Part shown: positions 1 to 60,241 of the stretch, piece by piece | Numbering within the stretch: the stretch's first letter is position 1 | How the letters are laid out: each line of letters begins with the position of its first letter | Source of the DNA: Candidatus Omnitrophota bacterium | Lineage (GTDB): Bacteria > Omnitrophota > Gorgyraeia > Tantalellales > Tantalellaceae | NCBI GenBank assembly: GCA_015231405.1 | Contig: JADGBR010000004.1 | Location: forward strand, 189 to 64,188 | Length of the DNA: 64,000 nucleotides | Direction: 5' to 3' | Made by a program: the position numbers and the translations under genes | Notes under the pieces: model-generated | What the model was told of the DNA's origin: nothing | Seen by the model: only the letters and a program-made list of their open reading frames with translations | Databases searched by the model: none

Positions 1-76
1 TTTTTTTTGGGGAAGGGGCAGTGAGTTATGAAGCTGCTTTATTCTACCCAGATTTGTTCTGGAAGTATTTGTTTTT

Positions 77-310
77 TTAGATGGTTATGGACAGCGTCTT
101 CAGGTCCTGCGGCACGGGCTGGCTACCATGCGTGATACCCGGATTTGTTGCATATCTTATTTCTTCGTATGTAGTTCGATATCGTGTCTGCTTTTTGCTC
201 TCAAGCTTCCTGGCTACTCCCGCTTCGCCGGATAACCAACCGGAAAAATAAATCCTCGATAGGATAAGAATGCAGATAAAAACTAGTACTATCGTTAAAG
301 GGCCAAGCAT
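77..310 (-). CDS. hypothetical small protein with N-terminal TM helix
   Basis: 77-aa ORF. The N-terminal hydrophobic stretch LGPLTIVLVFICILILSRIYF is followed by a charged tail. It is the last minus-strand ORF downstream of the giant gene. No recognisable family. Confidence 0.3.
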   Translation of the reverse strand: MLGPLTIVLVFICILILSRIYFSGWLSGEAGVARKLESKKQTRYRTTYEEIRYATNPGITHGSQPVPQDLKTLSITI

Positions 311-357
311 TGCGATATTGATATTTAATATCCCTACTCCCGGATTTGTTCCTTGTT

Positions 358-747
358 TTACCTCTTTTGCTCCGTTTTATCCGTAAACATAACTTTTGTC
401 TGGTTTCTGGCCAGATAGAAAATAATAAACGCTGATACAGCCAGTCTGAATATGGCTCCTGATAATTCTATCGAATTGAATTGGCCTCTTGCGACAAAGA
501 TCTGGGAAAAGAGGTTTTCAGCGATCGCCAGAGAAAAGATTATGACCGACAGGATCCGCGCCCAGTTCTTGAGCTTAAAAAGGCCTGTGCCTATAACCAG
601 ATATAGCATACCTGCTGCCGTAAAAACAAAAACGAATATTGGATGGACTGACTTGGACATTGAGTAAGTGAAGCCGGCTAAAAGAGCGAAGAGACCTATT
701 AAATAGTGCAGGGCTGCAATTGCAATAAGCATTTTAGATTTCTTCAT
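358..747 (-). CDS. hypothetical polytopic membrane protein (about 4 TM helices)
   Basis: 129-aa ORF with four hydrophobic segments, beginning LIAIAALHYLIGLFALLAGF. It sits 16 nt downstream of the 86-aa ORF on the same strand. Confidence 0.45.
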   Translation of the reverse strand: MKKSKMLIAIAALHYLIGLFALLAGFTYSMSKSVHPIFVFVFTAAGMLYLVIGTGLFKLKNWARILSVIIFSLAIAENLFSQIFVARGQFNSIELSGAIFRLAVSAFIIFYLARNQTKVMFTDKTEQKR

Positions 748-763
748 AAAACACCATTTGAAA

Positions 764-1024
764 TTATTTTTCCCGCAGCCATTTCTTCACCTGTTCACAA
801 TTATCTATAAATGGGCCTCCCCAGGCCGCTGAGGCTTCATTCAACATGGATATAACCCGTTTTTCTCCACCCGGCTCATTAATTGTTTCGACAATGGACT
901 TCCCTTTTAATGCCGGTATTTTTCTACTTACCCGATCTTCATAATAAGCATTGTCTTTACCCGGATATAATTGTTTGAAATGTTCCCTGATACTCGCTGG
1001 AAGATCTTCAAAGTGTTCTATCAT
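764..1024 (-). CDS. hypothetical 86-aa soluble protein; candidate immunity protein for the C-terminal domain of the giant protein
   Basis: Its start overlaps the giant-gene stop by 4 nt (ATGA), implying translational coupling. It is small, acidic and soluble, and lies immediately 3' of a PT-TG-like/C-terminal domain, which is the usual toxin-immunity gene order. It has no recognisable motif, so the call rests on context only. Confidence 0.35.
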   Translation of the reverse strand: MIEHFEDLPASIREHFKQLYPGKDNAYYEDRVSRKIPALKGKSIVETINEPGGEKRVISMLNEASAAWGGPFIDNCEQVKKWLREK

Positions 1025-4000
1025 GTTATTTCCTCCGCGCCTTTTTCAAATAAGTGTATAACCAGCCCCGGGATGTCATCAACACCCTCAAACCGTGCTG
1101 ATGGAGCAATAATGCCATTATAACCCCCGTAATAGGCAAAGTCACCTATTAACCGAGTTATGGTTGTATTTTCCTGTATTAAATCACTATTTTTTATCCC
1201 CAGTTTCGTAAGTATCATCGGATCTGTTAAATCAAGCATATTATTTACCATGACATTTTTCACACCAAAGGCAGTTTCCATAAAATCCCTATCTAAATGC
1301 GCTAGTTCACGCAAAGTTGTTGTTGAATTAGCCCCTGCGGATATAGTACCAATCCCAAATGGAGCATATCGATTTACACCTGAAAATTTATCGTATGTGG
1401 TCACCCGCCATATGTCATTCTTATATTGCTTTGGAACACCTCGAACAATCCTCCCGTCATAAACTACCCCTCCTGGTAAGTCATTTGCAATACCCAGCTG
1501 ATCTAATTTCCAGGCAACTGTACTCGCATCTGATAATTCATCCGAATGAACAAGCGCTTTTTCTGCATAATTAACAACCTTCGTTTCATGGACACCTTTC
1601 ATGAAATCTAAAATGTCATCAGATTTAGTTAATAATGATTTCCCACCATGCCTAACAAGTGCAGACCCCACACATGGCATCATTAGACATGTGCCGGAAA
1701 CAGCTCTTTCAAGCGGGGTAAGAGTTTCTCCGGTAATTATATCTTTACCGAACATCACCTGTATGCCATCGTGGAGCTCACCAACTACCGGCATGAACCC
1801 GGCCGCGATACTTGCGCCTATTTTCCATAACGGTATTCCCTGCACAGCGGGATCTGTTTTGTCGATCATACCGTCAATATCTTTCCCGGACAGGACAACC
1901 CGGATTTTTCCCGACGCGCATGACCCTTCCGCGCCGGCTTGTACATCGATGTAGGAACTCGTCAAGTTTGAACTTTCTCCGTCCGCGAATGCGAGAAGAC
2001 CGTCGTCGTCTTCATCGATAACTGAACCCATCGACATCCTATAACTGTAATTCCCATCGGGTCCGATGGCTGTGTATGTATTTCCGTTCAGGACATCATC
2101 TATCTCCGCGTCGAGATAATTTCTATACGAATCATAGTATAAAGAGCCTCCTTCTTCATTGGGTCTGACCCAGCATAGCGTTTCGCCTGTTATGGTGTCT
2201 ATAATTCTCGCTCCGGACTGTACTCCTCCGTTTATATCAAGCGTTATTCCTAGTCCCGGGATATAGCTACCATCAAGATATCCGTTCAAAAGAGCCATCT
2301 TGCCGTTACCGTCCACACCGATCTCGCCGAAAAGAAGAGTTTCTCCCTCTTTAAGTCCGATTATGTTGCCTTCCGAGTCGAAGAGCAGGATGCTATCGGT
2401 ATTTTCTGCCCTGATTCCATCGACAGTTGTGTCATCTTTGAGTGTGACCTGTTCTTTCTGGCCGGCTTGCCATTTATCGTAGAAATACCGGCCTATGGTC
2501 TTTCCGGAACTCGCTATGGCGTTTACGGCGGTCGTATTGAAGAAGCCGGTGGCATAGGCATTGAGGGCTTCGACTATACCCCTTTCTTTCACGACATCGG
2601 AGAATGTCATGACCGAATCCATGTACGCTATCCTGCCGATAGTGTAGGCAGGTTCGTCAGAGCTTATATTTCCTCCGAAAAAGGCGATGGCATTCGATCT
2701 ATAGCTTTCATACATGAATTTGAATATATCAAAATCTTCATCCCCGCTGAACATTCCACGTAATGTTCCATTGATCGCCGTAGATATCGCTGAGAAGCCG
2801 ATATTGGCAAGCATCGGGTTAATATCAAGCTGGTCGATCGCGTAATCTATCCCGATCTTTGCCACACCCTGCACCAAGCCATCCTGCACCGCCTGCCACA
2901 TATTCTCAGGGTCCTGGCCGTCTGAAAAGCCCACGTTCAGCATATCCCTTACTGCTATCCCTGCAAGATTCGATAGTTCCGCAGGTAGTCCTATAGTTTC
3001 TCCCATCCTGAGTATCCCGTAGTAGCTGATCTCTTCTGCCGCGTATGGGACTATCGTTGAGCCTATTTCTTGTGAAAGAAGATCGTATGCTTTTGACAGA
3101 CTTCCGTCCGGGCCTGACATGCCCGTCAGGAACGCCCCGCCCATGCAGGCCGCACCCGTAGACATCATGTCGGAGAGAAACGGGTCTAGTCCGGTTTCTC
3201 TTCCTACCAGGCTCACGCCGGTTTTTATCGTGCTGGTCAATGCGCCGGTTAGGAAGTCGCTTCCGCCCGAGTAGCCGCCGGTCATGAAGGAGGCGGTAAT
3301 CCTTGAGATGTCATTGTTTACGCCGAGTGTGTCCATAGCATTCGTGATGGCGTAGTTGTAGGTGAACATTTTTATGCCGTCGAGGAGGGTTTTGCCAAAA
3401 TCGCCGAAGAAGGTCATTATGGCGTGAGTGCCGCCCTCGACTAGTTTGCCTAATGCGGTAAATACGCCCCCTACTCCCTGTGTAACGGTCTGTAATCCGC
3501 TGAAAAACCCTCCTATTATATTCGGGAGGTTCGCTATGATACTCGCGGCGCTGAAGACCAGAGTTACTATTCCAAGGATCTTACTTACCAGCTGGCAGAT
3601 GCTGTTGTCTATGAAACTCAAAGCTACCGATATGGCGCTTAGCCAGTAGAATATGGCGGGGAGGGCGAAGAGGAAATTGCCTTTTACAAGAAGTGATTCG
3701 TTAGTGGTGAGTTCGCGGAACGAGTTCGGGGCTTGGTTTGGGTTCGCGGGCGGGGCTCTGTCAGCTAACACATAACCGGTCCAGTTCATGAGGAAGGTTT
3801 TCTCGTCGAGTGTTATGCTTTCGCCGGCTGTGTTTTTGTTCGGTTCATAATAGGTGACGTCCCCATTTTCGGCGATGTCGGTGACAATGACGTAGTGGTT
3901 GCTCGAGAGGTGGACTATAATGTCTCTACCCTCATCTTTGACCAGCCATTTAAGCCCGGCGATATCCGTCTTCGCCGCCTTAAATTCGGCACTCTGTCCC

Positions 4001-7000
4001 CTGTCCTCTCGCCTCTCGCCTCTTAACCAGTTATCCAAATATCTATCCATCGCGAACAATGAAATACTGAGCGTACCTTCGGTAAAAGTATCGATCGACC
4101 CCATGAATACCTCTATAAGGAGAATATCCCGGGCTATATTTTTCATGGCCTGGGTTCTTTCCGCCGGGGTTGCGAATACGGCTCCGTTATTTTCCATAAG
4201 TTTAAGCACCGTCTCGAACGCGCATCGGCCAAGGTTTATCTGGTTAGTCTTCAGCCAGTCGATGATCATGGCGGCGTCCTTACTGCCCCAGCCGGTATTG
4301 TTATGCGCGGTTACCTCCGTTTCCGTGAGGCCCAGGGCCGTAAGAATAGCGGCTCGGCCGGCCTGTGCCGCATCCGGGTCAGTATAACTATTCAAAACGG
4401 TCTCGACATCGGTTATGACCGAGTTATTAAAAGCGACTTTGTCCGTATATTCAGGAAGGCTTTTTAGTTCGCTTTCTAGATCGATCACGTCGAGGAAAGC
4501 TACCCTAAGCACCGGGTTAGCGCATCCGGCGCTCTTTGCCATCGTTATCCAATACGACATCTCATCCGTCCCCCCGTTCGCCGACGTCTCGCCGGGGTTA
4601 CGGCCGAGGATCTTCAAGTAATAAATATTAATTATCTGCCTCACTTCCTGTTCCAGTATATTCCTCTCGGCTGTTTCCTCCTGGGCCCGGACGGCGGCGA
4701 TAGTGGTCGAGTATTCGCTCATTATCATCCCATGGGCATTCGATATGTCGCCGGGGACTTTCATGTACTCGTCGTTTATGTACCGGACAGCCTCGTTCTT
4801 GCTGTCTTTAACATTCTGTATCTGGACCTCGATCTCGTTCCTCATGCTGTTCTTCTTTTTCTTATCGGACGGCCAGAATGGGTTCCAGCTGTTTATTGCC
4901 TGGAGCTGGGCGTATAACTGGTTAAGAGCGTTATCGCATTCGTTTATTATCTGAACTTTCTGATCGTTCAGATAATAGATCGCCGAATCTTTGGCTTTAG
5001 CAAGATCCAGGAGAGCCTGGTCTTTCCTCGACTCGATATCGAGCTTCGTCTTTTCCAGCTCGAAACGGGTGCTTCTACGCATCCCGTCATAATCTATATC
5101 GACGATGTTCTGGTCTTCGTCGTAGCTGTACCTGACGACCGGGTTCCAGTCGGTATCGGTCACTTCTACAAGCAGCCCTCTCGCGTCGTAATGCTCGACG
5201 CGGTTATCTCCTTTATACACGTATTCCAGCCGGCCGAACTTGTCATAGACGCTTTTCATGACCCAGCTCGTATCCTTGAAATAGTTTGGTAGATGTTCTT
5301 TCGCGAGCGTGACCTCGGAGGCAAGGGCCTCTTCAAAACCGAGGTTATAGTTATTCCTCTTCGCGTAATCGGCAAGTGTGCTCATATCCACAAGGCGTTT
5401 AGCGGGTTTCGAGTTAAATACGTTCGGGTTTGTCTCGTTCCGGAAATATATCTTATCCTTGAACGATATGCCCGAATCCGCTCCGCATGAGAATTTGAGG
5501 CCTATATTGACTATCCTTGTCGGGTCGAAACCTTCCGACGTAACGCCCCCCGGTATTTCGCCATAACCCGGTTTCAATGTGACCTCGAACCATTCACCTT
5601 CTCTTGTAATATTTACATAATTCCCGTATTCGTAATTATAGTTCTCGTCTTTCACGAATACCTGCGCCCAGCTTGAATGGATTCCGTCGCCTATAAAACC
5701 GGCCGGGGCTTTAACCCTGAATTTTAGTTCTTTATCAAGCAGGTCCAGCGGCCCTTCGTAAACATATCCGCTGCCGGCAAGGTCGTAACGCAGGTCTATA
5801 TATACTTCGCCGTCATTGTTCGTCTCGCTGCCGGCCGCCATATCGGCGTTGAGCGCCCAGGCGTCGAGAGTGTTATCCAGCGTAACGGCTTTTATCCCCT
5901 GTGAATATTCGATATTCTGGGCGCGCCACGAGCCGTCCTCAAGCACCAGCGGTTTATTCACTACCTCACCCGGTTCCTGCCGGGCCGGGACATTATCCCA
6001 CATCCTGAAATTCGGGTTACCCACCGAAGAGCCATCCCATATTATCCCCACATAAGGTTTAACGGAGTCTTCCGGGACGAGGAAAGGAGCGCTCACATAA
6101 CTACCCCCGGGACATGTACCGTAGTTAGCGTCGACTATGGATATACCCCCGTTATAGTTGAAAGTGCGGTCATAGTCGTCGCGAAGGCGTACGCCTATAA
6201 GCCTCACTTGTTTCGGATCGAAATTAGCGCTTTTTATCCCGAATAATGGTTTATCGTCCGATACGACAAGCTCGACCTTGTACCACCCGTTGTCGTTCGT
6301 GATCGTCACTTCGGTACCGTATAAGTCCCCCCAAACACCGCTGTCCTCGGATTTGGCGAAGATCTGCGCGGTGACGCTTTTACCCGGGGGAAGGGTCCCT
6401 TCGTCGAGTTTTATATAGAAACTGGCCTTCTTGCCGCTAAGGTCGCGGGTGCCCTGGTCGAACGAGTTCGGCTCCGGGTACCGGAGATCGACATAAGCTT
6501 CACGCCAGTCCCTGGACAAAAGATCCGCGTTTATATGCATTGTTTCGGCTGAGCCCCGATAATTATCGCCGGAACCCGGATCCGGATCCCGCCATTGGTT
6601 GCCGCCTCCGGTCAGCCTTTCACCTATCTTTTCCTGTTCGCCTGTTCTGTAAAGGTCGTCTTCACCGGGGATAGCGATATCCATGAATTTAACGAGCTTA
6701 TAGTTCGCGTATATACCGGCAAGGCTGCCGCTTTTGTAGAATAGCCGCGTGCCGTCGTTCGCGGTGACGTTTACCCAATCCCCGTCGATGACTGAGGCTC
6801 TTTGTGCACCGTCAGCCATAACTACCGTGAACTTTTTCAGTCTCGGTAGGCCGTTATTGTCCTCTATCATGCCTATATCCTCGAGGACAACGCCGTTAGG
6901 GCATGTTACATAGTCGACGGCACCTTCCTTATAGTAGACCACGCGCCCGTCATCGTGATGTTCTTCCGCGAGTTCCGCTATCATGCTGCCGTCCGCGTTG

Positions 7001-10000
7001 TATAGGTAGCGGTATGCCCGGCCTTTACCGTCATAAAAGTGAGTGAGCTTGTTATTTGTGTCGAATTCCCTGACCGTGCCGGTATTGTCCGCTAGTGTGA
7101 TCTTCGCGCCGTACGTGTAAGTGAATACGTTCATTCCCTTATCGCCGCGTTTCTGGGTTATCACGCTGATCTTTTGTTCGCCGCCGATCGTTGTGTACTC
7201 GTAATCTGTCTCGAGACCGAGCTCATTCACCTGATAGATAATATTATCATCGCGGTAATGCCTTTCAATTTTGGCGATGGTATCCGTTACGACGACCGTT
7301 TCCGTCCCGTTTGCGTCTTTAACATATTTATAGGTATAGAGCCGCCCGTCGGGGTACCTGGCGCTAATGATCTTATTATCGTCGTCGAGCACATACGCGA
7401 CACCTTCCCCGTCCCTTATCTCGGATAATTTCGTGCCGCTATAGATGTACTCGACGTCTTTCGGATCCTTTATGCTGGTTATATCCCCGGAAGTGCCAAA
7501 ATTGACGACGGTATCATCGGAAGTGATAAGTTTTATTAGAGCCCCGTTTTCGTTATAGATACGGGCTATATCGTCGCGATCGATCTCGAATTTGGCGCGC
7601 GACTCTTGATCCGACGGGTCCAGCGTAATGATCGCCGACAGGGTATTGCTGTCAGTAACGGTTATATTCCCTTCTGAGATATTGATGGTCTCCCCGGCGC
7701 TATTGGTCACCACCGTTATTTCCCCGCCCGGGCCGTAAATAACGCTAACTGGAACCGCGTCGTCGGTTGTTACTCCCGTTAGCGTCGACCTGTTACCCGC
7801 CGGATCGTACGCGTACCTATATTCAACGCCGTTACGGTTCACCCTCAAAATATGCCCGTTCTCGAATTCCGTGTATTCCCCGTTCGGACCGGAGAAAGAA
7901 ACGGGGATACCCGAAGCGTCATAGATACTCGTCCATTCTTCGCCCGTTATCCGCGTTCGTTTTAGCTCTCCCCGGGCGTCCCTGTACAAACTGTACAGAT
8001 TTAAACCAGTCCGGGGTGAATATTCAGCGGAGATGTCGTTACCCCTCGATATCTTTATCGTCCCGTCTCGGGCTATAAGCTCCATAAGTTCCCCGTTGTA
8101 TACGACTCCTATGCCGCCGTCAGGATAACTCACAAGAGCTCTATCGAGTTTGCCCTCCCCGGAAAGGACTATACCGCTTAACCGCGATCCGTTTTCCTTG
8201 AGTATCACCGAATCGAGATCCCCGTTTTTATAACGGATAATATCACCGTTATCGTTCGTTATCGACACAAGACCCTCGCTAACCGGAGGCACGATACCGT
8301 CAACTGCAGGATCCCATACATATATGCTTTTCCCTGACGGGTCGAATACCTCGATATGCCCGTCTTTACATAGATCGCGGTAAGAGATAAGCGCGCCGTT
8401 CGGATCCCTCGAATATTCACGGTAATTGCCGGACGCGTCCAGGCTCCTCGTTAGAGTGCCTGTCACAGAGTCATATTCGTTAAAACCTGAAATTTCTCCG
8501 GTTTTATAGTTTTTCTCAGCCCTCGTTATAATAACATCACCCGATCCGTTCTCCCCGTAACCTAACTCGAATGTCGTGCTTTTATCGCTTATCTTCCCCG
8601 TATCCTCCCACGACGCGCCGATGACCGTGCCGTTAATGCCGTTCACCCGGTCTATAATGCCGGTACCGGTGCCTTCGTCCATGTCCCATGCGGATACGAG
8701 GGACGCTGACGCGCCGGCCCCGCTCGACAATTTTACGTTCTTTATCGCGCCCGCGAGGCTCGCTGTGCCAACCTGGCGGTAGCCGAAGAACATGTCACCG
8801 TCGAAATCCAGGCCTTTACATGCTCCGGCGGGATAGGTCTTACTTATGACTTCACTGCCGTCGACATACACTGTGACTGTTGCGCCATCATACCTCATTT
8901 CGAGGCTATACCATTTGTCGAGCTGGTCGAGGCTTCCGACGCTCCCGGAAACGTCGTCCCCAAACTCGCCGCCGGGCATGCTTATATACACCCGTCCTGC
9001 CCCGCTCTTCCATATCTCGAGCCTGTCGGAATTACTGAGCCGTTTAGTGAATACCGGCACCCAGTTACCCTGGGAGCCGGATGAGAATTTAACGTCCATT
9101 GATATCGTAAAAGCGCCGAGGCTGTGGAGGGCCGAAGACTGTACGGTCACGCCGTCGCCGGTGCCGTCCAGTGCGAGGACGCTTTCACGTTTTATCTCGT
9201 CTACCTTGACAACTCTTCCAGGTCCGTTCCCGGCAGTGTTATCATCATAATGGAATATTATTGTATTACCTATATTAGGCTCGCCTGCGAGATCCTCCGC
9301 TTGGGCGGTTATTCCATCAGGGATATTCTTACTGAATTCTTTTCGCGAGAGGTTACCGCTATCCTCATAATATGTTTCTTTGTATACCAAATCCCCAGCG
9401 GGATGATCTTTCTTTGTCTTCGAAAATAGTTTTGACGCGCCCTCAGCCGTCTCGCCGTAATACTCGAATTCGTATGTTACGCTTTTTTCCGTTATATCGT
9501 CCGTGTTTTCCCATACGGGGCCGATCACCGAGCCGTTATTGGTCCCGACCCTGTCGGTAACACTCCAGCCGCTACCTTCGTTCATGTCCCACGCGGATAC
9601 CAGCCCGGCCGTTATATCCACGCCGGAATTAATGGCCATGACCTCGCCCGTCGTTATCATCCTGTCAAAGAGCCTTACATCCCTAATACTCCCGGGGAGC
9701 GACGAGTTATCAAATTTACGGTAGCCGAGGAACATCTCAGCGCTAAAATCCATGCCTAGGGAGTCCCAGCTCTGGGTTATGACCTCTATCCCGTCCACGT
9801 AAACTTTTATGGTATTCCCGTCATACCCCAGGGCTATGTTGTACCACCTGTTAACTCCCGCCAGGCTGTACCCGATCTCCTTTTTGTCCAGGCCGCCGTT
9901 ACTACCGGGGAAACTTATATAGACCTGTCCTACCCCGTTCTTCCATATCTCGAACCTCTCGTCGACGCTTGTACCCCGTTTCGTGAGTATCGGTACCCAC

Positions 10001-11493
10001 TTGCCGGAGGCGCCGTCGCCGATATTTACGTCCAGCGATATCGTGAATGTTTTAAGATCGTGGCTTGGATCAACGCCGAGGCTTACTCCGTCCATATAGC
10101 CGTCGAATTTGAGAAGCGTTATAGGATCCTCTACCTCGATCCTTTTGATATTCCCGTCACCCGTTCCCGCGGGGTTGTCATCGTAATGTATTATTATGTT
10201 CTTACCTTGGATATCCTCACCGACCATAGCTATAACCACTCCGGCAAGGTCCGGCGTCAGATCTCTGTAATACTCACGCTTCATGATCTTGCCGCTACCT
10301 GAGTAGAAAGCCTCTTTGTAAATCGGTTTACCGTCCGAAAGGCGCGCAATCGTCTTTATCAGGATCTTATCGTTCTCCGGGTCGTTCGGATCCGCGTATA
10401 CTATCGCATGCCGCTCGCTTTCGGGTCCGGGCAATGCCGATAGCGACCACGTCGGACCGGTTATCGTCCCGTCATTTCTTCCGATAGCGTCGTTTATCAC
10501 CGTTCCAGTCCCTTCATCCATTGCCCAATCCGATACTTTCCCTCCCGTAACATCGTTATCGTTACTAACGGCGTTCACTTCACCCGAAGATAGGGCGCGA
10601 TTATAAAGTTTAACGTCTTTAATATCACCCGCGAGCGTCGCGCTATCAACGGCCCGATAACCAAGGAACATCTCCGCGTCGAAATACATGCCGTCAGACA
10701 CCGCGCTCTTCGTTATTATCTCCACGCCGTCGAGATACGCCTTCAGTTCGCCGGCGGTATAAGTAACGGTAATGTTCCGCCAGACGCCTACGGTGTTCAG
10801 GCTGTAATCCGTACCGTTAAATGTCTCGCCTTCTATTCCCCCCGGGATAGTTACACTTAACCTGCCGTTATTTGTTTTCCAGATCTCGAACCTCGTCACC
10901 GCGGAACCGCTTCTTTTAGTGAGGAACGGCACCCACACACCGGACGACCCTTCATCGATCTTCACGTCCATCGATACCGTGAACTCACTCAGCTTATGCG
11001 TTGTATTATTCCCGAGGCTGACTTTGTTGCCGTTCGCCATGAAACCTAGCTCATACTCATCGTCAATGACATCGACCTGGCTCACCCTCCCCTCGCCGTC
11101 CCCGGCGTCTTCGTCAATATAGGTATATATGACGTGCTTACCCTTATATTCTCCTTCGGCGGGCTCATCGAAGACTTCTCTTGTCTTAAGCCTCCCGGAT
11201 CCGTAATGTGTGTCTTTGTCGGGGATAGTTAGCGCCATCATGAGGTTGGTAGTTTCTCCGGAGTCGGCCGCTTCGGCCGACTTGTTATTTCTTATAAGAT
11301 CTTCCGCCGCGTTCCGCGAATCGACCTTCGCCTGGTTAGCTAGACGGGCCGTTATCGACTCTGCGGAAATAATATTCGATCCGTGATCGGGATCCAATTT
11401 ATTAGCGACGCCAAGATCCCCCGCCAGGGCCACCTGTTCTAAAAAATAGATCACCGCGGTTAAAGCTGAAATGGTTTTGAATATGTATTCCAT
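1021..11493 (-). CDS. giant secreted multidomain protein (3,490 aa) with the architecture of a polymorphic toxin: signal peptide, 3 LamG-like modules, YD/RHS-type repeats, 2 CBM-like modules, coiled coil, DUF4214, C39-like peptidase domain, TM block, PT-TG-like motif, C-terminal ~230-aa domain
   Basis: Single uninterrupted ORF with an AGAGGTG Shine-Dalgarno 5 nt before the ATG.
- N-terminus MEYIFKTISALTAVIYFLEQVALA looks like a signal peptide.
- Three ~280-aa modules each carry a YDD/HYDDNxAGxGxG segment and a LamG-like segment (e.g. FTVSMDVKIDEGSSGVWVPFLTKR, FTISLDVNIGDGASGKWVPILTKR, FTISMDVKFSSGSQGNWVPVFTKR, each followed by EIWK...YVDGxEVI...MFLGYR).
- YD-repeat-like motifs (YRYAYDPAGNRS, YTYKYVKDANG, RAYRYLYNADGS) follow.
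- A DUF4214-like motif ILGRNPGETSANGGTDEMSYWI is encoded at ~4556-4640.
- C39 peptidase signatures are a Q/Cys region NQINLGRCAFETVLKLMENNG at ~4213-4270 and a His region NHYVIVTDIAENGDVTYYEP at ~3880-3918.
- Hydrophobic helices FLFALPAIFYWLSAISVALSFI and ILGIVTLVFSAASIIANLP lie at ~3540-3700.
- GKDIITGETL is encoded at ~1700-1750. Confidence 0.85.
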   Translation of the reverse strand: MEYIFKTISALTAVIYFLEQVALAGDLGVANKLDPDHGSNIISAESITARLANQAKVDSRNAAEDLIRNNKSAEAADSGETTNLMMALTIPDKDTHYGSGRLKTREVFDEPAEGEYKGKHVIYTYIDEDAGDGEGRVSQVDVIDDEYELGFMANGNKVSLGNNTTHKLSEFTVSMDVKIDEGSSGVWVPFLTKRSGSAVTRFEIWKTNNGRLSVTIPGGIEGETFNGTDYSLNTVGVWRNITVTYTAGELKAYLDGVEIITKSAVSDGMYFDAEMFLGYRAVDSATLAGDIKDVKLYNRALSSGEVNAVSNDNDVTGGKVSDWAMDEGTGTVINDAIGRNDGTITGPTWSLSALPGPESERHAIVYADPNDPENDKILIKTIARLSDGKPIYKEAFYSGSGKIMKREYYRDLTPDLAGVVIAMVGEDIQGKNIIIHYDDNPAGTGDGNIKRIEVEDPITLLKFDGYMDGVSLGVDPSHDLKTFTISLDVNIGDGASGKWVPILTKRGTSVDERFEIWKNGVGQVYISFPGSNGGLDKKEIGYSLAGVNRWYNIALGYDGNTIKVYVDGIEVITQSWDSLGMDFSAEMFLGYRKFDNSSLPGSIRDVRLFDRMITTGEVMAINSGVDITAGLVSAWDMNEGSGWSVTDRVGTNNGSVIGPVWENTDDITEKSVTYEFEYYGETAEGASKLFSKTKKDHPAGDLVYKETYYEDSGNLSRKEFSKNIPDGITAQAEDLAGEPNIGNTIIFHYDDNTAGNGPGRVVKVDEIKRESVLALDGTGDGVTVQSSALHSLGAFTISMDVKFSSGSQGNWVPVFTKRLSNSDRLEIWKSGAGRVYISMPGGEFGDDVSGSVGSLDQLDKWYSLEMRYDGATVTVYVDGSEVISKTYPAGACKGLDFDGDMFFGYRQVGTASLAGAIKNVKLSSGAGASASLVSAWDMDEGTGTGIIDRVNGINGTVIGASWEDTGKISDKSTTFELGYGENGSGDVIITRAEKNYKTGEISGFNEYDSVTGTLTRSLDASGNYREYSRDPNGALISYRDLCKDGHIEVFDPSGKSIYVWDPAVDGIVPPVSEGLVSITNDNGDIIRYKNGDLDSVILKENGSRLSGIVLSGEGKLDRALVSYPDGGIGVVYNGELMELIARDGTIKISRGNDISAEYSPRTGLNLYSLYRDARGELKRTRITGEEWTSIYDASGIPVSFSGPNGEYTEFENGHILRVNRNGVEYRYAYDPAGNRSTLTGVTTDDAVPVSVIYGPGGEITVVTNSAGETINISEGNITVTDSNTLSAIITLDPSDQESRAKFEIDRDDIARIYNENGALIKLITSDDTVVNFGTSGDITSIKDPKDVEYIYSGTKLSEIRDGEGVAYVLDDDNKIISARYPDGRLYTYKYVKDANGTETVVVTDTIAKIERHYRDDNIIYQVNELGLETDYEYTTIGGEQKISVITQKRGDKGMNVFTYTYGAKITLADNTGTVREFDTNNKLTHFYDGKGRAYRYLYNADGSMIAELAEEHHDDGRVVYYKEGAVDYVTCPNGVVLEDIGMIEDNNGLPRLKKFTVVMADGAQRASVIDGDWVNVTANDGTRLFYKSGSLAGIYANYKLVKFMDIAIPGEDDLYRTGEQEKIGERLTGGGNQWRDPDPGSGDNYRGSAETMHINADLLSRDWREAYVDLRYPEPNSFDQGTRDLSGKKASFYIKLDEGTLPPGKSVTAQIFAKSEDSGVWGDLYGTEVTITNDNGWYKVELVVSDDKPLFGIKSANFDPKQVRLIGVRLRDDYDRTFNYNGGISIVDANYGTCPGGSYVSAPFLVPEDSVKPYVGIIWDGSSVGNPNFRMWDNVPARQEPGEVVNKPLVLEDGSWRAQNIEYSQGIKAVTLDNTLDAWALNADMAAGSETNNDGEVYIDLRYDLAGSGYVYEGPLDLLDKELKFRVKAPAGFIGDGIHSSWAQVFVKDENYNYEYGNYVNITREGEWFEVTLKPGYGEIPGGVTSEGFDPTRIVNIGLKFSCGADSGISFKDKIYFRNETNPNVFNSKPAKRLVDMSTLADYAKRNNYNLGFEEALASEVTLAKEHLPNYFKDTSWVMKSVYDKFGRLEYVYKGDNRVEHYDARGLLVEVTDTDWNPVVRYSYDEDQNIVDIDYDGMRRSTRFELEKTKLDIESRKDQALLDLAKAKDSAIYYLNDQKVQIINECDNALNQLYAQLQAINSWNPFWPSDKKKKNSMRNEIEVQIQNVKDSKNEAVRYINDEYMKVPGDISNAHGMIMSEYSTTIAAVRAQEETAERNILEQEVRQIINIYYLKILGRNPGETSANGGTDEMSYWITMAKSAGCANPVLRVAFLDVIDLESELKSLPEYTDKVAFNNSVITDVETVLNSYTDPDAAQAGRAAILTALGLTETEVTAHNNTGWGSKDAAMIIDWLKTNQINLGRCAFETVLKLMENNGAVFATPAERTQAMKNIARDILLIEVFMGSIDTFTEGTLSISLFAMDRYLDNWLRGERREDRGQSAEFKAAKTDIAGLKWLVKDEGRDIIVHLSSNHYVIVTDIAENGDVTYYEPNKNTAGESITLDEKTFLMNWTGYVLADRAPPANPNQAPNSFRELTTNESLLVKGNFLFALPAIFYWLSAISVALSFIDNSICQLVSKILGIVTLVFSAASIIANLPNIIGGFFSGLQTVTQGVGGVFTALGKLVEGGTHAIMTFFGDFGKTLLDGIKMFTYNYAITNAMDTLGVNNDISRITASFMTGGYSGGSDFLTGALTSTIKTGVSLVGRETGLDPFLSDMMSTGAACMGGAFLTGMSGPDGSLSKAYDLLSQEIGSTIVPYAAEEISYYGILRMGETIGLPAELSNLAGIAVRDMLNVGFSDGQDPENMWQAVQDGLVQGVAKIGIDYAIDQLDINPMLANIGFSAISTAINGTLRGMFSGDEDFDIFKFMYESYRSNAIAFFGGNISSDEPAYTIGRIAYMDSVMTFSDVVKERGIVEALNAYATGFFNTTAVNAIASSGKTIGRYFYDKWQAGQKEQVTLKDDTTVDGIRAENTDSILLFDSEGNIIGLKEGETLLFGEIGVDGNGKMALLNGYLDGSYIPGLGITLDINGGVQSGARIIDTITGETLCWVRPNEEGGSLYYDSYRNYLDAEIDDVLNGNTYTAIGPDGNYSYRMSMGSVIDEDDDGLLAFADGESSNLTSSYIDVQAGAEGSCASGKIRVVLSGKDIDGMIDKTDPAVQGIPLWKIGASIAAGFMPVVGELHDGIQVMFGKDIITGETLTPLERAVSGTCLMMPCVGSALVRHGGKSLLTKSDDILDFMKGVHETKVVNYAEKALVHSDELSDASTVAWKLDQLGIANDLPGGVVYDGRIVRGVPKQYKNDIWRVTTYDKFSGVNRYAPFGIGTISAGANSTTTLRELAHLDRDFMETAFGVKNVMVNNMLDLTDPMILTKLGIKNSDLIQENTTITRLIGDFAYYGGYNGIIAPSARFEGVDDIPGLVIHLFEKGAEEIT

Positions 11494-11699: not shown

Positions 11700-13119
11700 T
11701 TATTTCAGATATTCTTCACGAACATATTCGTTCCACATCGACTCGAACACTGGGAGGGAGAGGTAGAATTCCTCGTCCACTATGTTGGCTATGTGTTCGC
11801 GTCCTTTCATCCTTTCCAGGATCTTCCGAACGGACGACCAGCCCCATCTTTCGGTTATGAAAGCTACGGCGGTATAAGCGCCTTCATAACTTAGGCCAAC
11901 GAGACCAAGGTCCTCCATCTGGGCGAACCCTTTTTCAAGCAGCGCCACGCTGAGCTTGCCGCCCGAATCGGAAAAAGCTTTTACATGCCCCGGAGGGTAG
12001 GGCGCGTACACTTTCTGCTCGAACACGGCCATGGCTTCATTGAACCATGGCGGGCAATTATTGTCGGTCATATAGGAAACAACGGCATGCGTATACTCAT
12101 GCGCGATGACGGCTTTGAACATCGGATCGTTGATATCGGGAATGAATACCATCTTGATGCCGCTACCGTCATAGAAACCCCGGACTATGCCTTTCTGGTC
12201 GAATACTGTCCGGAAATCATCCTCGGTGTAGAACGTTATGGAAGTCCCTTTGGGAAGATAAATGCCGAGATCATTACCCACACGCTTGTATATATCAACA
12301 AGTAAAGAGCTCAAAACATCCTTGTCTATATCGTATTCCTTGAACAGACCAACCTTGAAATAGCCCATCTCGATCTCGTCCATCTTATCTCTCATCGCGA
12401 GTTCTCTAGTGACCTTTTCAAACTCGGATCTTGCGTCGGTATCGTCCGGGGCGGCATGAACGGCCTTCTCCCAATAGAACCTGGCCTTTTCAAGGTCGGA
12501 CTCCTTGTAAAAATGGTACGCCAGCATTTTTATTGTCTCCACCCTCGGCCACAGCGAGTAGGAGATGTTCGCGAAAATGTACACCGTGCGCGGGTCGTTC
12601 TTCGCGTACGCTTCTGCGGCCTTGTTAAACAGGTATATCGACACGTTCTTCCTGGCCTTCTTAGACCGCATAGCTATATCCACGGCTTTTTTCACCCTGT
12701 TCATGGCGAGGACATAATCCTTGTCTTTCGCGAGCCGGGCCGCTTTAGAGATGAGGAGTATCGCGAGGTCGTTCATTACGAGAAGGTCCTTGGGGTCGAG
12801 TGACGACGCTTTCAGAAGGCACTCGATAGCCGCGTCGAGGTCCCCGCTGTCGTTCATTCCCCGGGAGCACTTCACATATTCCTGAAGAAGGACCTTCCTC
12901 ACATTCTCGCCCGACGGCGCCTCCTTAAAAGCTTTAGCTAACACCTGCATGGCGTCTTTGTATTTCTTCGCTTCTATCTGCGCCTCGACCTTGCGGATAT
13001 ACTCGTAGATGCCGATCTCATGCCTGAACCCGTAATGATAGAACGCCCAGCTGAGGATGATGATCACCACCATCGACACGATGAAAATATTTATATTCTC
13101 TTGATATGAATCGCTCATC
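11700..13119 (-). CDS. TPR-repeat protein with C-terminal HExxH zinc-metallopeptidase-like domain (peptidase MA-like), N-terminal TM anchor
   Basis: I chose the start MSDSYQENINIFIVSMVVIIILSWAFYHYG (ATG at 13117-13119, with a GGGGG stretch 8 nt upstream). The longer 11700..13361 ORF in the track would overlap the upstream radical SAM gene by 240 nt across a GC-rich stretch. The protein has a TM helix, then TPR-like helical repeats, then HEYTHAVVSY (HExxH) with downstream FNEAMAVF. Confidence 0.55.
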
Positions 13120-13123
13120 CTAT

Positions 13124-14254
13124 CTACCCCCGCCCCCTGCCTGCCTTGCCGGCAGGCAGGCTCCCTGCACCATGCGCCATGCCTCTTATCTTCCCCTCTA
13201 CCAACTGCCGAACGAACCTGAACTCCGGCCACCATCCCCCACCCACGAACTTCCGCACCTTCGGGAACACGGCGCACTTGAGGCACGGCGAGGCCGGGTC
13301 CGGCTCGATACGCCCCATTAAGACCTGTTTCATACGGACATACTTCTTCCCTTTCACGCACTCGCGAAGCCCGGACTCGAACACATTACCCAGATCCCCC
13401 CACTCGTTCAGACAGCAGCCCAGAAGTTTACCGTCCCAGTTTATCATCGGGGAGAACCAGAGCTGATAACAGGGGAATTTATACATGCTCGAGGTCTTTC
13501 CCTCATACTCCTCGCGGGAGGCATACCCTATCTCTTTCCTGACAAATTCCTTATTTTTAACGGGCGAATATTCCGGGTGGGCGTTCAGCTTAGGCCGGAA
13601 ACTCATGCCAAGGGTTCGGGCCATTTCCCTGGCGAGCGGGATATCATGTTCATTATGCCCATAAACTATGAATTGCCATGTAAGAGCCGGATACTCCGAT
13701 CCGTATTTTTTCTTAAACTCGTTAATTTTCCTGATATTCCCGATGACTTTATCAAAATCGCCGTTCACACGGTATATCTTATACGTGGCCGCGCTTGCCC
13801 CGTCCAAAGAAACATACATCGACCTGAAACGGTACTTGACCAGGGCCTCCAGCATCTCATCCGAAACGGTATTAAGGTTAACCCCGTTCTCTGCCGTAAG
13901 GATCACCCCTTTTTCAAAAGCGTACCGGATGATCTCCAAAAGCTCGGGATTTAGGAATATCTCCCCGTAATTCGACAGCTCTATCCGCTTGAACCCCGGG
14001 AACCTTTCCACAAACCCTTTAAAATCCTTGAACTTCAGGTACCCCTTCCCGATAACCCCCATATCCCCAACCCCTTGAGGACACTCCGGGCACCTGAGCT
14101 GGCAAACAGAAGACGCCTCCAGGCGTACCTTATCCCCCAGCACGCCGTACCTGATATAATTGCTTATAATCGAACTGATCCTCATTATCTTAATATCCCG
14201 GCCTATTCTCCTGGTATATTGTGTAATTTTACCCGCACTTATGGGTGTTGTCAC
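13124..14254 (-). CDS. radical SAM protein with C-terminal SPASM/twitch-like Cys cluster (first of four paralogues)
   Basis: CQLRCPEC (CxxxCxxC) lies near the N-terminus. The C-terminal Cys-rich region reads FPCYQLW...LLGCCLNEWGDLGNVF...PCLKCAVF. It is a paralogue of the ORFs at 26638, 44401 and 48044. The true start may be the internal Met (MRISSIIS, near 14185). Confidence 0.7.
   Translation of the reverse strand: MTTPISAGKITQYTRRIGRDIKIMRISSIISNYIRYGVLGDKVRLEASSVCQLRCPECPQGVGDMGVIGKGYLKFKDFKGFVERFPGFKRIELSNYGEIFLNPELLEIIRYAFEKGVILTAENGVNLNTVSDEMLEALVKYRFRSMYVSLDGASAATYKIYRVNGDFDKVIGNIRKINEFKKKYGSEYPALTWQFIVYGHNEHDIPLAREMARTLGMSFRPKLNAHPEYSPVKNKEFVRKEIGYASREEYEGKTSSMYKFPCYQLWFSPMINWDGKLLGCCLNEWGDLGNVFESGLRECVKGKKYVRMKQVLMGRIEPDPASPCLKCAVFPKVRKFVGGGWWPEFRFVRQLVEGKIRGMAHGAGSLPAGKAGRGRG
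13136..13160. repeat. perfect GC-rich hairpin (10-bp arms CCTGCCTGCC / GGCAGGCAGG, 5-nt loop) at the radical SAM / TPR-peptidase gene junction
   Basis: Read directly from the sequence: cctgcctgcc ttgcc ggcaggcagg. It lies within a locally GC-rich stretch (13120-13340). Confidence 0.85.
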
Positions 14255-29625: not shown

Positions 29626-31606
29626 GCGTATTCCCTGAGCTCATTTTTTCATAAAGGTGCCCTATATAACTACCCATCCTCTCCGCGGCTCTCCCGTCGC
29701 GAAAAGGGTCCCTGGAGTCTATATCCTTATAATATTTTATATCACCAATATCCAGGCAATCTTTCCTGCCATTACGCAACCCTTCTACTTTATCCAGCAT
29801 AACATCTATATTATCGAACACGATCACATCCTTGCCCCACAAATATTCCGGATATTCATAGCATCCTTCCAGATCAAGAAATATCGTCCTGTTCCCCGCG
29901 AGCAAATTTTCCAGCCCGACAGTTCCACCTGCCAACAATGTGATCACAATATCTGACGCCTTGCCATATTCTACGGGATATACATTTGGTTTATATCCAC
30001 GTCCGGGATCAAAATAGATCCGACCGCACTCTTTGATCTTTTCAAGCGGCCCACGCAGTCCAGGCAACCTTTCCACAAGCCCGGAAGCATTTTTGGGTGA
30101 ACATATCAACCCTACTTCAGGAGTTTTAAATACATATTCGAACAATTCTTGATAGACTTTAGTCCCAACCAGGCTGGAAGTCATCGAGAACATGCTATCA
30201 GACGCGTGTTCATCAAAATATGATACTATGAACTTCGCTCCCTTTCCCATCATCCTTCTTCGTAAAATACCAGCATTCTCATCAACATGTTGAAATGAAT
30301 AATCCGTCAAATAACCGCAATATAGAATATTCTCACTTAACATCCCGCTGCCAACAAAAGCTTTTTTGTTAGCCGGACCGAAGAGGAACATAACATCCGC
30401 ATTAGTCCCGTAAATAAGCGCGGGAAAAATAGCGTTCGACAACTGGTAACTTATATTAATTCCTCCGCATTCGACCAATGCCAACCTCTCCGCAACCCTC
30501 GAATAGACAACATCCATTCTATCAATATTGATGATTATTTTATTTGTCCTGAAATAATCATGCGCCAGGGAATAGGCCGAAATAAAGTCGATGATCGGAG
30601 CGGTTAATACCCCTGGGTGACCCCCTTGTCTCAAGATGCTTTTCACCATAAATGGAAAAATAGAACCCGCGCAGTTCATTATTTTTCCCAGAAATATTCC
30701 CGAAGCCCGGTATGATGGTATCTTTTTGTCAACAGCCTCATCGTGCAATAGTTTTAAATACCTTATCCCCCTGCTCCTCAGCAGCGCAAGCATTTCCCCT
30801 GTCACAGGAACGTTCTTACGCCTGAAGTAGACCAACACCTTTCCTTCGGGAACATTACACCTCTGCAACCAAGGAAAATCACACCTCCTATCAGGTTCGA
30901 ACGTAATACCAATTCCTGTATAATTTACACCGATAACACCATTAGTTTCGCGTTCACCGTTTGAGGCTTTTCCGAAAGCACTAACGCCGGAATTAAACAG
31001 TGCCCGCGCGACTTTTCCGGCCAGATCGATAATCTTGGAGCAAAAGAACGCAATATTTTTGGCGCACTCGCTTAAAGAAAAAGAATATTCTATATAGACA
31101 TTGAACTTCGTTCTTGAATAATCCCCTAACAACAGTTTATTTATTTTTTTCACTGTCACGAAAAACGTTCTTCCCTCGTATCCCGCCTTATCAAAGAACC
31201 ATTTTATAAAAAGAACCTCAAGAAGCGGGGTTTTTATTAAACCCCCCAGATATTTCTCTAAATATAATTCAAATTCCCGTTGCCCAAATATCCCGCAACA
31301 ACACTTCACTAGAGGATCTTCGCTAAAAACAGCATACCCCTTTTTCGTCAATTCAAGCAGCATAACATCCAATCTTACATAATAACTTCTCCCGTTTTCA
31401 TTCTCCCTTACCTCACTAAGCTTTGGAGTTATTCTCTTCAACCGCCAATTATTCCCAACTATGCCAACTAAAAGATCAAGCACTTTTGAACTGTAGAAAT
31501 AATAGACTCTCCTTTTCTGTCCATGTCTCAATAGCTCAAAGAGATACTCTGCTACCGTTAACCTTTCATATACAATGTTTTCGATATCGTCAGTCATAAA
31601 AAACAT
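29558..31606 (-). CDS. hypothetical 682-aa protein, candidate nonulosonic-acid/sugar transferase (Maf/DUF115-like?)
   Basis: Large soluble protein inside the glycan block with no sharp motif. The Maf-like idea rests only on its position in a CMP-legionaminic-acid-type locus that needs a transferase. Confidence 0.3.
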   Translation of the reverse strand: MFFMTDDIENIVYERLTVAEYLFELLRHGQKRRVYYFYSSKVLDLLVGIVGNNWRLKRITPKLSEVRENENGRSYYVRLDVMLLELTKKGYAVFSEDPLVKCCCGIFGQREFELYLEKYLGGLIKTPLLEVLFIKWFFDKAGYEGRTFFVTVKKINKLLLGDYSRTKFNVYIEYSFSLSECAKNIAFFCSKIIDLAGKVARALFNSGVSAFGKASNGERETNGVIGVNYTGIGITFEPDRRCDFPWLQRCNVPEGKVLVYFRRKNVPVTGEMLALLRSRGIRYLKLLHDEAVDKKIPSYRASGIFLGKIMNCAGSIFPFMVKSILRQGGHPGVLTAPIIDFISAYSLAHDYFRTNKIIINIDRMDVVYSRVAERLALVECGGINISYQLSNAIFPALIYGTNADVMFLFGPANKKAFVGSGMLSENILYCGYLTDYSFQHVDENAGILRRRMMGKGAKFIVSYFDEHASDSMFSMTSSLVGTKVYQELFEYVFKTPEVGLICSPKNASGLVERLPGLRGPLEKIKECGRIYFDPGRGYKPNVYPVEYGKASDIVITLLAGGTVGLENLLAGNRTIFLDLEGCYEYPEYLWGKDVIVFDNIDVMLDKVEGLRNGRKDCLDIGDIKYYKDIDSRDPFRDGRAAERMGSYIGHLYEKMSSGNTRDTAISYANEKYVEKWGRDSIG

Positions 31607-45424: not shown

Positions 45425-46591
45425 TTACGGTCTACTGGGCTTATTCCATAGACTGTTCTCGGTCTTTTTGGAAGTTATCACATTTACTCGCGCCGAAACA
45501 ACAATGCTCTCTATCTGCTTATAGATATGATGATATTTCCCGTCATTAATGATCATATCCATTGCAGCTTCCCGCTTATTCTTTCTTTCCCGACCTTTTT
45601 TGTCAAAGTATTTGAAATTAATCGTCTTAAGTTTTCTTGCCAATGGATCTGGCAAGCATTTATCTATTATCATAGCCGGCAAATAACTACGCTTATTGCT
45701 TTTCCTTCGCCCGCCCGCTATCGATCTTTCAAGATATTTCCGGAAGAAATCATTTGCGACCTCGATGTCAACATTGTCATATTGAGCAAGATATCTAGCC
45801 AAACAACACGATGCCTTATCGAGCCGCTGAGCATAATCCGCCCTATCCCTCACTGGGATATATGCATCACCTTCCCTTAGTGTATTTTTCGATATCGGTA
45901 TTACCTCACGAAACATATAGGGTTCATTAAAGACCTTCAGCTTGCCAAATATTATACTTAACCCCTGAGGGATCAATTCGCCAAAATACGGATCCGACGT
46001 GTTGTCGACCACTTCTTTCCACATCTTTCGCATATGCTCCGTCCGATGAACACCGTAAAAGCTGCTCCCCCTGTATTCATTATACAGGCTCTTTATCCTC
46101 TCGAATGGGCTATCCTGGTCGATTGACTTCGTAGTATAGTACAAAAGATTGTTCTTGAACTCCAACACCCTGTTCTCGTTTTCCTCTATATAGTGCGAGT
46201 AATATATACCGTGAGCGACCGAGTAACTCCTATTTTCCTCCAAATATGATATACACTTTTCCACCGTCTCAGGAATAATAAAATCATCATCCGCGCAAAT
46301 AACTACGTACGGCGTCTCAATTTCGTCAAGCGCATATTTAATTTTCGCCATGTAGAGTTCTTCGGACTTTACTTTTCTATATTTAATTTGCCTTATATTG
46401 AAATATTTCTCGACAACCTCGAACCCGTCATAACGGTCGCTGGTATCCATAACTATTATTTGCATAGGATACGCATAAGATTCATAGAAACGGAACAATC
46501 TTGACAGAAATAGGTACCTGTTCATCGTTGGAATGATCATCGTAATTTTGTCAAAAAGCCCGGTATTCATTTTTTCAGTTTTCATACACAT
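45425..46591 (-). CDS. GT-A-fold glycosyltransferase-like protein
   Basis: ITMIIPTMNRYLFLSRLFRFYESY...IIVMDTSD with DxD-like ICADDDFIIPE. The family is uncertain. Confidence 0.45.
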   Translation of the reverse strand: MCMKTEKMNTGLFDKITMIIPTMNRYLFLSRLFRFYESYAYPMQIIVMDTSDRYDGFEVVEKYFNIRQIKYRKVKSEELYMAKIKYALDEIETPYVVICADDDFIIPETVEKCISYLEENRSYSVAHGIYYSHYIEENENRVLEFKNNLLYYTTKSIDQDSPFERIKSLYNEYRGSSFYGVHRTEHMRKMWKEVVDNTSDPYFGELIPQGLSIIFGKLKVFNEPYMFREVIPISKNTLREGDAYIPVRDRADYAQRLDKASCCLARYLAQYDNVDIEVANDFFRKYLERSIAGGRRKSNKRSYLPAMIIDKCLPDPLARKLKTINFKYFDKKGRERKNKREAAMDMIINDGKYHHIYKQIESIVVSARVNVITSKKTENSLWNKPSRP

Positions 46592-46636
46592 TCATTTCCC
46601 GGAAGGCAGCTAACTTACTAGTACCATTTCAAGCCA

Positions 46637-60220: not shown

Positions 60221-60241
60221 TTTTCTTGTTTTAACTGCGTA

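Follow-up and report, generated by a model that had tools for sequence, protein, structure and literature searches.

Does the C-terminal end of a giant gene in an Omnitrophota genome encode a toxin, and does the small gene that follows it encode the matching immunity protein? A first-pass annotation had proposed such a candidate pair for a stretch of 64,000 nucleotides of contig JADGBR010000004.1 from a Candidatus Omnitrophota bacterium (hereafter the window). Four consecutive open reading frames (ORFs) of 3490, 86, 129, and 77 amino acids occupy the minus strand of window positions 1..11493. These are the giant carrier gene (1021..11493, defined by its ORF and translation), an 86-amino-acid ORF (764..1024, hereafter ORF86), and two hydrophobic ORFs (358..747 and 77..310). 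NCBI labels the first two as hypothetical protein HQL30_03235 and hypothetical protein HQL30_03230 of a Candidatus Omnitrophica metagenome-assembled genome (MAG). In an exact-sequence look-up these two and the likewise hypothetical HQL30_03225 were each found to form a singleton cluster.

The proposal is supported by the homology and fold of the tip, which has the features of a RES toxin domain, by the C-terminal position of such domains on many carriers, by a break in the GC content at third codon positions (GC3), and by the presence of DUF2384-like genes at the equivalent position in relatives. We consider it likely, with a fair margin of doubt, that carrier, tip, and ORF86 together form a functional toxin-immunity module: the carrier would be exported, the tip would attack NAD+, and the downstream product would neutralize the tip in the producer.

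Identity, fold, and origin of the C-terminal tip

A word-indexed search of 5.8 billion proteins returned no match for the tip. An exhaustive HMMER search of 1.84 billion cluster representatives detected 192 relatives at E <= 1e-3 and 45 at E <= 1e-10, the best of them with E = 2e-36 and 53% identity. The matched region comprised tip residues ~48-186, i.e. carrier residues ~3336-3474, and delimits the RES toxin core (1072..1488, minus strand; residues 3336-3474). Matched ranges mostly began near tip residue 45-55, with a few starting from residue 5-30. In 91% of the 150 matches listed, the domain ended at most 25 residues from the C-terminus of the host protein; host proteins varied in length from 69 to 5121 amino acids.

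The alignment of 42 sequences contained the invariant columns R24, R48, G53, E69, L93, D94, G123, and S138 (alignment numbering), which were also invariant or nearly so in 107 sequences. Although no motif had initially been recognized in the tip, the conserved set R, R, E, S listed for Tox-RES by Zhang et al. 2012 (PMC3482391) is present. Its members are the conserved polar residues of the RES core R3351 (1441-1443), R3375 (1369-1371), E3396 (1306-1308), and S3465 (1099-1101), all encoded on the minus strand. The Pfam family RES (PF08808) was matched by all 42 aligned members (best E = 4.2e-19). The closest relative, a protein of another Omnitrophota MAG (L001), passed the RES gathering score with 33.8 bits; this protein and a second one (P0002) were 50-53% identical to the tip (E = 2e-36). 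When the family profile was compared with the PDB, it matched MbcT (6fkg_A, E = 2.7e-7) and, more weakly, the RES protein 8gug_A (E = 0.066).

Evidence from the tip sequence alone is fainter and counts against the assignment: the isolated segment scored 19.2 bits (E = 1.3e-3) and thus stayed under the PF08808 gathering score of 23.2. In a scan of the whole protein, a faint RES signal of 12.4 bits appeared over the tip. The single PDB sequence match of the tip was weak (MbcT, E = 0.052), and neither PADLOC nor NCBIfam returned anything for the tip or for the three small ORFs. Homology to the RES family was therefore established transitively, since the direct Pfam score is sub-threshold but the relatives score as RES.

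Structure prediction led to the same family. A model computed with AlphaFold2 from the alignment reached a predicted local distance difference test (pLDDT) score of 91.5 and a predicted template modeling (pTM) score of 0.86; single-sequence prediction gave a pLDDT of 33 and was unusable. When the model was compared with the PDB using Foldseek, ranks 1-12 were all taken by RES toxins (MbcT, NatT, Pseudomonas putida RES, ParT, and VPA0770), followed by ADP-ribosyltransferases (ARTs) of the diphtheria toxin type. The question whether remote homology and structure prediction would reveal a nuclease, deaminase, or ART fold was thus answered in favor of the RES fold, which is ART-like; the tip has the fold of an enzyme, not that of a structural, non-enzymatic domain. 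Based on the PF08808 matches of the relatives, the profile match to MbcT, the AlphaFold2 model, and its Foldseek neighbors, the tip is almost certainly a divergent RES domain (Tox-RES).

Regarding its chemistry, the tip would attack NAD+ in the target cell; by analogy with the solved relatives MbcT, P. putida Res, and NatT, NAD+ would undergo phosphorolysis or hydrolysis. MbcT is an NAD+ phosphorylase (PMC6436930). Protein ADP-ribosylation as in ParT seems less likely. An alternative of this kind would make the tip a ParT-like mono-ADP-ribosyltransferase acting on a specific target protein rather than a depleter of NAD+. It could draw on the appearance of ParT among the structural neighbors (6d0h/6d0i, E about 7e-4 to 1e-3) and on the diphtheria toxin-type ARTs ranking directly after the RES toxins. 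However, MbcT was the best match in both sequence and fold (Foldseek E = 6.5e-8), with a TM-score of 0.65 versus about 0.5 for ParT, a difference that does not in itself discriminate between the chemistries. We regard a ParT-like activity as unlikely and an attack on NAD+ as the preferred reading.

One position departs from the family pattern and speaks against an intact activity. Ser3385 (1339-1341, minus strand) aligned with Tyr58 of MbcT, and 104 of 107 relatives carry Tyr there. The toxicity of MbcT depends strictly on each of R27, R47, and Y58 and partly on E69, but not on S126; it is abolished in the Y58A mutant (PMC6436930). Among the residues essential in MbcT, both arginines are present in the tip but the equivalent of Tyr58 is not, which leaves the set expected of an MbcT-type NAD+ phosphorylase incomplete. 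Since Y58A is non-toxic, the activity of the tip may be weakened or altered by the serine, or the position may contain a base-call or assembly error; its codon, TCC, is one base away from TAC. In the extreme case, the tip would be a decaying or inactive RES relic, changed at the nicotinamide-stacking position, or the serine would be an error of the MAG consensus. The rarity of the substitution, the single-base distance, and the MbcT mutant all fit such a scenario. Yet none of the other invariants (R, R, G, E, LD, G, and PSAR) has been lost, the frame stays open as far as a natural stop codon, and the ORF coupled to it downstream is undamaged. Two more relatives also lack the tyrosine and have Cys or His instead. 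A relic or a consensus error is therefore improbable in our view, and the tip is best regarded as a RES toxin domain in which a position that MbcT cannot do without has been altered by a natural experiment.

The junction between carrier and tip yielded a further line of evidence. The PT-TG-like motif noticed in the first-pass annotation corresponds to a genuine pre-toxin domain: Pfam PF14449 (PT-TG) matched carrier residues 3227-3279 (1657..1815, minus strand) and passed its gathering score of 23.5 with 36.3 bits (E = 5.7e-9). The peptide quoted there (GIPLWKIG...GETL) comprises carrier residues 3219-3258 (window 1720-1839) and falls within the PT-TG match; exactly 232 residues follow it, in agreement with the tip length originally given. 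A linker (residues 3280-3335; 1489..1656, minus strand) separates PT-TG from the RES core. It aligned with few relatives and then in part only, from about residue 3310, and shares the low GC3 of the tip.

GC3 fell from 0.60 in the carrier body to 0.41 in PT-TG and 0.31 in the tip, and amounted to 0.36 in ORF86. A likelihood change-point search placed the switch within PT-TG, at residue ~3249 (window ~1749), with a GC3 of 0.56 before and 0.30 after it. Because the break lies inside PT-TG and GC3 remains low through ORF86, tip and ORF86 are one cassette that was acquired jointly from a lower-GC source. A foreign composition starting at the pre-toxin motif is the product expected of recombinational tip replacement in polymorphic toxins, and RES domains occur at the C-terminus of unrelated carriers, as befits a mobile cassette. 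PT-TG would accordingly mark the boundary of tip exchange and is probably also a processing site.

ORF86 and the genes behind related RES tips

As first described, ORF86 starts in the stop codon of the giant gene: its ATG (within ACATGATAG) overlaps the TGA by 4 nucleotides (ATGA, 1021-1024). A Shine-Dalgarno-like GGAGG, read from the sequence, is located 7 nucleotides upstream of this ATG, within the final part of the toxin gene (1032..1036, minus strand). With overlap and ribosome binding site combined, ORF86 is translationally coupled to the toxin gene. Its product is small, as had been stated, but the accompanying description as acidic did not hold, as 14 D/E stand against 14 K/R and the calculated isoelectric point is 6.7.

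Sequence searches with ORF86 itself gave little. In the word-indexed search of 5.8 billion proteins it found no homologue but itself; Pfam returned no match even at E <= 10, nor was there any in NCBIfam or PADLOC, and comparison with PDB sequences produced chance-level matches only. None of the three downstream ORFs matched Imm51 (PF15595), and none had another Pfam match above threshold. As ORF86 had no database matches, we surveyed the genes that follow related RES tips, covering 16 genomic and 52 metagenomic loci. A downstream gene was defined as an ORF of at least 45 amino acids starting between -40 and +200 nucleotides from the stop of the RES gene.

According to this rule, 48 related loci possess a downstream ORF, and these encode 33 distinct proteins. 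Twenty of the 33 belong to a single DUF2384-like family without a helix-turn-helix (HTH) domain, mostly about 88-116 amino acids in length; the order of RES gene and small downstream gene is thus conserved in relatives. Members of this family showed sub-threshold matches to PF09722 (Xre_MbcA_ParS_C), and their best PDB matches were antitoxins cognate to RES toxins, namely Xre (6gw6_B, E = 0.0076), ParS (6d0h_B, E = 0.024), and 8gug_B (E = 0.84). Of its 98 relatives in the database, many have a precomputed PF09722 match or are named DUF2384. DUF2384 is listed as an antitoxin of toxin-antitoxin (TA) systems by Zhang et al. 2012 (PMC3482391).

A similar motif was discerned in ORF86. Its residues 28-62 (839-943, minus strand; RKIPALKGKSIVETINEPGGEKRVISML) form a DUF2384/MbcA/ParS-like motif. 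When this segment (YEDRVSRKIPALKGKSIVETINEPGGEKRVISMLN) was compared with the core of the DUF2384-like family, hhalign reported P = 1.6e-4 and a probability of 50%; ORF86 against the profile of 91 family sequences gave P = 3.4e-4 and a probability of 38%. The hhalign score of 26.1 lies about 7 standard deviations above the mean of 400 shuffled sequences (mean 10.8, standard deviation 2.2, maximum 19.5), and the reversed sequence scored 11.7. At one of the metagenomic loci (L019), the RES gene is followed by an ORF of 174 amino acids that matched PF09722 over residues 33-64 (E = 1.4e-4). The Smith-Waterman score of 45 between this ORF and ORF86, obtained for the same motif, was reached in 4 of 2000 shuffles (p about 0.002). 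An Xre-type HTH was detected by Pfam neither in ORF86, with its 86 amino acids, nor in its relatives of ~88 amino acids behind other RES tips.

Several results weigh on the other side. The hhalign probabilities for ORF86 do not exceed 38-50%; BLASTP of ORF86 against the downstream ORF of L019 was not significant and left the motif region unaligned; and HMMER with the 91-sequence profile of the HTH-less family missed ORF86 and found nothing in the window. Since the HMMER family profile and BLASTP both miss it, we did not file ORF86 as a member of PF09722. Judged by its sequence, ORF86 is probably a very divergent relative of DUF2384/MbcA/ParS; it appears to be a strongly diverged version of the antitoxin C-terminal domain, minus the DNA-binding HTH part.

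An immunity role is backed independently of this homology by the position of ORF86, by its translational coupling, and by the low GC3 that it shares with the tip. ORF86 is thus probably the immunity protein, and it would most likely protect the producer by binding to the active-site cleft of the RES domain, like the C-terminal domain of MbcA, ParS, and Xre antitoxins. The C-terminus of MbcA blocks the RES cleft of MbcT (PMC6436930).

Alternatively, ORF86 might have nothing to do with immunity. Protection could then come from a downstream membrane protein or from a distant gene, or might not be needed at all if the target were non-kin or eukaryotic. This scenario would account for an ORF86 without family match or homologues, and it agrees with the finding that the downstream partners of related tips come from four or more unrelated families. 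It also agrees with the nearest relatives of the tip: at L001 and L017, where the RES domain ends a PLD-PLD-RES protein, no adjacent small ORF is present, which is a point against the proposed pair as well. However, it leaves unexplained the ATGA overlap with its GGAGG site, the GC3 of ORF86 (0.36, near the 0.31 of the tip, whereas the membrane ORFs have 0.47-0.49), and a DUF2384-like motif located where it is expected and scoring above shuffled sequences. Moreover, RES toxins act in the cytoplasm, which a soluble binder should suit better than a membrane protein. We therefore think it rather doubtful that ORF86 lacks an immunity function, and retain it as the probable immunity protein.

The survey also revealed variation in the related loci themselves. 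Carriers of related tips comprised RHS, RHS + PT-TG, DUF6531 + RHS, and PLD-PLD proteins, and the long relatives of the tip were RHS proteins. One of these, P0016 (1663 amino acids), has exactly the architecture RHS + PT-TG + RES. The proteins of L001 (2450-4495, Omnitrophota MAG JAQTPE010000053.1) and L017 (165-1988), with 50-53% identity to the tip, are not RHS toxins: they consist of 607-681 amino acids and contain two PLD-like (HKD) domains and a C-terminal RES domain. At both loci the 200 nucleotides downstream are devoid of a small ORF; the next gene at L001 encodes 300 amino acids and starts 250 nucleotides away.

At other loci, different small proteins replace the DUF2384-like protein. 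A second candidate immunity family follows the RES tips of L006 (4408-4818), L007 (4487-4921), L008 (2417-2809), L046, and L053. Its members are about 130-165 amino acids long and share Cys-x2-Cys pairs at both ends (with weak zinc-ribbon matches) and a common FxxFRK motif. Further unrelated small proteins without Pfam match are encoded directly after the RES tips of (i) L049, L052, and L054 (about 154 amino acids, IDGQIRKIE...GFQAFLK) and (ii) L041, L055, and L056 (about 135-167 amino acids). This diversity suggests that no fewer than four or five immunity families serve the RES clade as alternatives. In Reinekea sp. G2M2-21 (L003), two paralogous DUF2384-like genes of 115-116 amino acids (4435-4785 and 5172-5519) lie behind one RES toxin of at least 1478 amino acids; the gene pair seems either to have arisen by duplication of an immunity gene or to be left over from an orphan cassette. 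In two high-GC metagenome contigs (L019, 400-1122; L018, 35-877) the RES gene is split across two frames, running up to ...NIGANH and then restarting, as a result of a frameshift or an assembly error. In L018, the RES gene additionally runs on, in frame, into the tail of the downstream ORF.

Carrier architecture and delivery

Besides its N-terminal hydrophobic leader and its C-terminal RES tip, the carrier protein comprises three Laminin_G_3 modules, RHS/YD repeats, two hydrophobic segments, and PT-TG. It thereby shows the features described for polymorphic toxins by Zhang et al. 2012, i.e. a multidomain carrier with leader and repeats and a pre-toxin domain before the tip. The hydrophobic stretch at the N-terminus (MEYIFKTISALTAVIYFLEQVALAG) was read directly from the sequence. 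The Laminin_G_3 modules were matched in Pfam with E = 2.4e-47, and few RHS/YD repeats were detectable (Pfam RHS_repeat; NCBIfam YD repeat). Hydropathy analysis located the two strongly hydrophobic segments near residues 2607-2655. In window 3600-3900 (carrier residues ~2590-2660) and on to ~2900, this hydrophobic pair gives way to a long Gly/Ala/Ser-rich region before PT-TG. The hydrophobic and Gly/Ala/Ser-rich part between repeat body and PT-TG had no family match; it may be a membrane-insertion or translocation region. A releasing peptidase of the papain/C39 type with a Cys-His pair, suspected by eye at carrier residues ~2420-2560 (window ~3900-4250) from LGRCAFETVL...HLSSNHYVIVTDIAENGDVTYYEPN, SNHYVIV, and YYEPN, was dropped, as neither Pfam nor PDB sequence searches supported it.

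The LamG/RHS carrier would be exported by means of its hydrophobic leader. Unfavorable to a dedicated delivery route is the finding that the 10 kb upstream of the carrier contain no secretion-system genes and, in particular, no components of type V, VI, or VII secretion systems (T5SS, T6SS, T7SS); we therefore infer export by the general pathway. The genes found upstream encode a TPR/peptidase-MA protein, a radical-SAM/SPASM protein, glycosyltransferases, and a methyladenine glycosylase. The first two of these, located immediately upstream of the giant gene (11700-14254, minus strand), are a TPR + Peptidase_MA_2 ORF and a radical-SAM/SPASM ORF that overlap at 13124-13361. The giant gene has no paralogue elsewhere in the window, and neither terminators nor notable promoters were seen within the toxin module.

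The two small ORFs behind ORF86 had been described as membrane proteins that might be further immunity or orphan modules. Their hydrophobic character was confirmed, with four hydropathy peaks in ORF 358..747 and one in ORF 77..310; the suggested role was not. Neither had a family match above threshold, and their GC3 (0.47 for the 129-amino-acid and 0.49 for the 77-amino-acid product) is intermediate and unlike that of the cassette. A second RES or DUF2384-like sequence is absent from the window, and we set the idea of additional immunity or orphan modules aside. The 129-amino-acid ORF (minus strand), a singleton, gave a sub-threshold match to DUF7144 (22 bits vs a cut-off of 27); nothing links it to the toxin module.

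Further low-GC stretches were observed at window ~30800-31600, ~45900-46600, and ~60100-60400. Their GC content of 0.37-0.40, compared with a window mean of 0.46, resembles that of the toxin cassette, and they too may have been acquired.

A bolder reading of the locus can be formulated, to which we give very little weight. ORF86 would be the first member of a new and extremely divergent branch of RES inhibitors, or a structurally unrelated binder, and the tip with its Tyr-to-Ser change would have an altered chemistry or substrate. Both would be deployed on a LamG-rich protein of 3490 amino acids by which ultra-small Omnitrophota, lacking a recognizable dedicated secretion system, attack neighboring or host cells.

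Comparison with known systems

Tox-RES was already listed as a polymorphic-toxin tip by Zhang et al. 2012 (PMC3482391), on carriers with RHS and FilH repeats, with export by type II (T2SS), T5SS, or T6SS machineries, and with Imm51 as immunity protein. In Pseudomonas fluorescens F113, Tfe2/Tfi2 comprises a predicted PAAR-Rhs-RES effector of the T6SS and a downstream immunity gene (PMC7970981). The present locus shares with such toxins the C-terminal RES domain with its R, R, E, S set on an RHS-repeat carrier and the putative immunity gene directly downstream; PT-TG before the tip is likewise found in P0016. It differs from them in several respects: (i) the carrier is far larger, dominated by three LamG modules, and has few detectable RHS repeats; (ii) PAAR/VgrG or TpsA domains and nearby secretion genes are absent, and the host is an Omnitrophota MAG; and (iii) the tip is a sequence outlier that does not reach the Pfam threshold when scored in isolation and in which the conserved Tyr is missing. 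Imm51 (PF15595) occupies the same genomic place, behind a RES tip, but has no Pfam match to ORF86.

The closest counterpart among characterized systems is MbcT-MbcA of Mycobacterium tuberculosis (Rv1989c-Rv1990c, PDB 6fkg), with MbcT as the best sequence and fold match. The tip contains equivalents of R27, R47, and E69, and the inhibitor family has the DUF2384-type toxin-binding motif in common with MbcA. In contrast to MbcT, a free-standing intracellular toxin of 186 amino acids, the RES domain described here is the tip of a giant, putatively exported protein and has Ser in place of Tyr58; unlike MbcA, the putative inhibitor ORF86 has no Xre HTH. The fold of the tip is also shared by the toxins of Res-Xre of P. 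putida (6gw6, 9r35), ParT-ParS (6d0h), NatT-NatR (8qnq), and VPA0770-VPA0769 (8gug), with Foldseek E values of 9e-5 to 1.3e-3. These four are type II TA modules with autoregulating antitoxins, and their activities differ (NADase, NAD(P) depletion, and ADP-ribosylation of Prs).

For three genes annotated as hypothetical in a poorly studied candidate phylum, the comparison provides a concrete function. Omnitrophota would carry contact-type or secreted weaponry targeting NAD+, with the same modular design as in Proteobacteria and Firmicutes. What the locus adds is modest: the Omnitrophota host, the very large LamG-rich carrier, the outlier tip with its Tyr-to-Ser change, and the prevalence, directly after this RES clade, of short HTH-less DUF2384-like proteins rather than Imm51, alongside at least three or four other unrelated families. 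The understanding of polymorphic toxins is unchanged by it. As Tox-RES tips, a PAAR-Rhs-RES effector, and the biochemistry of RES domains are already on record, the locus adds one more ordinary member to a toxin class that has been in the catalogues since 2012.

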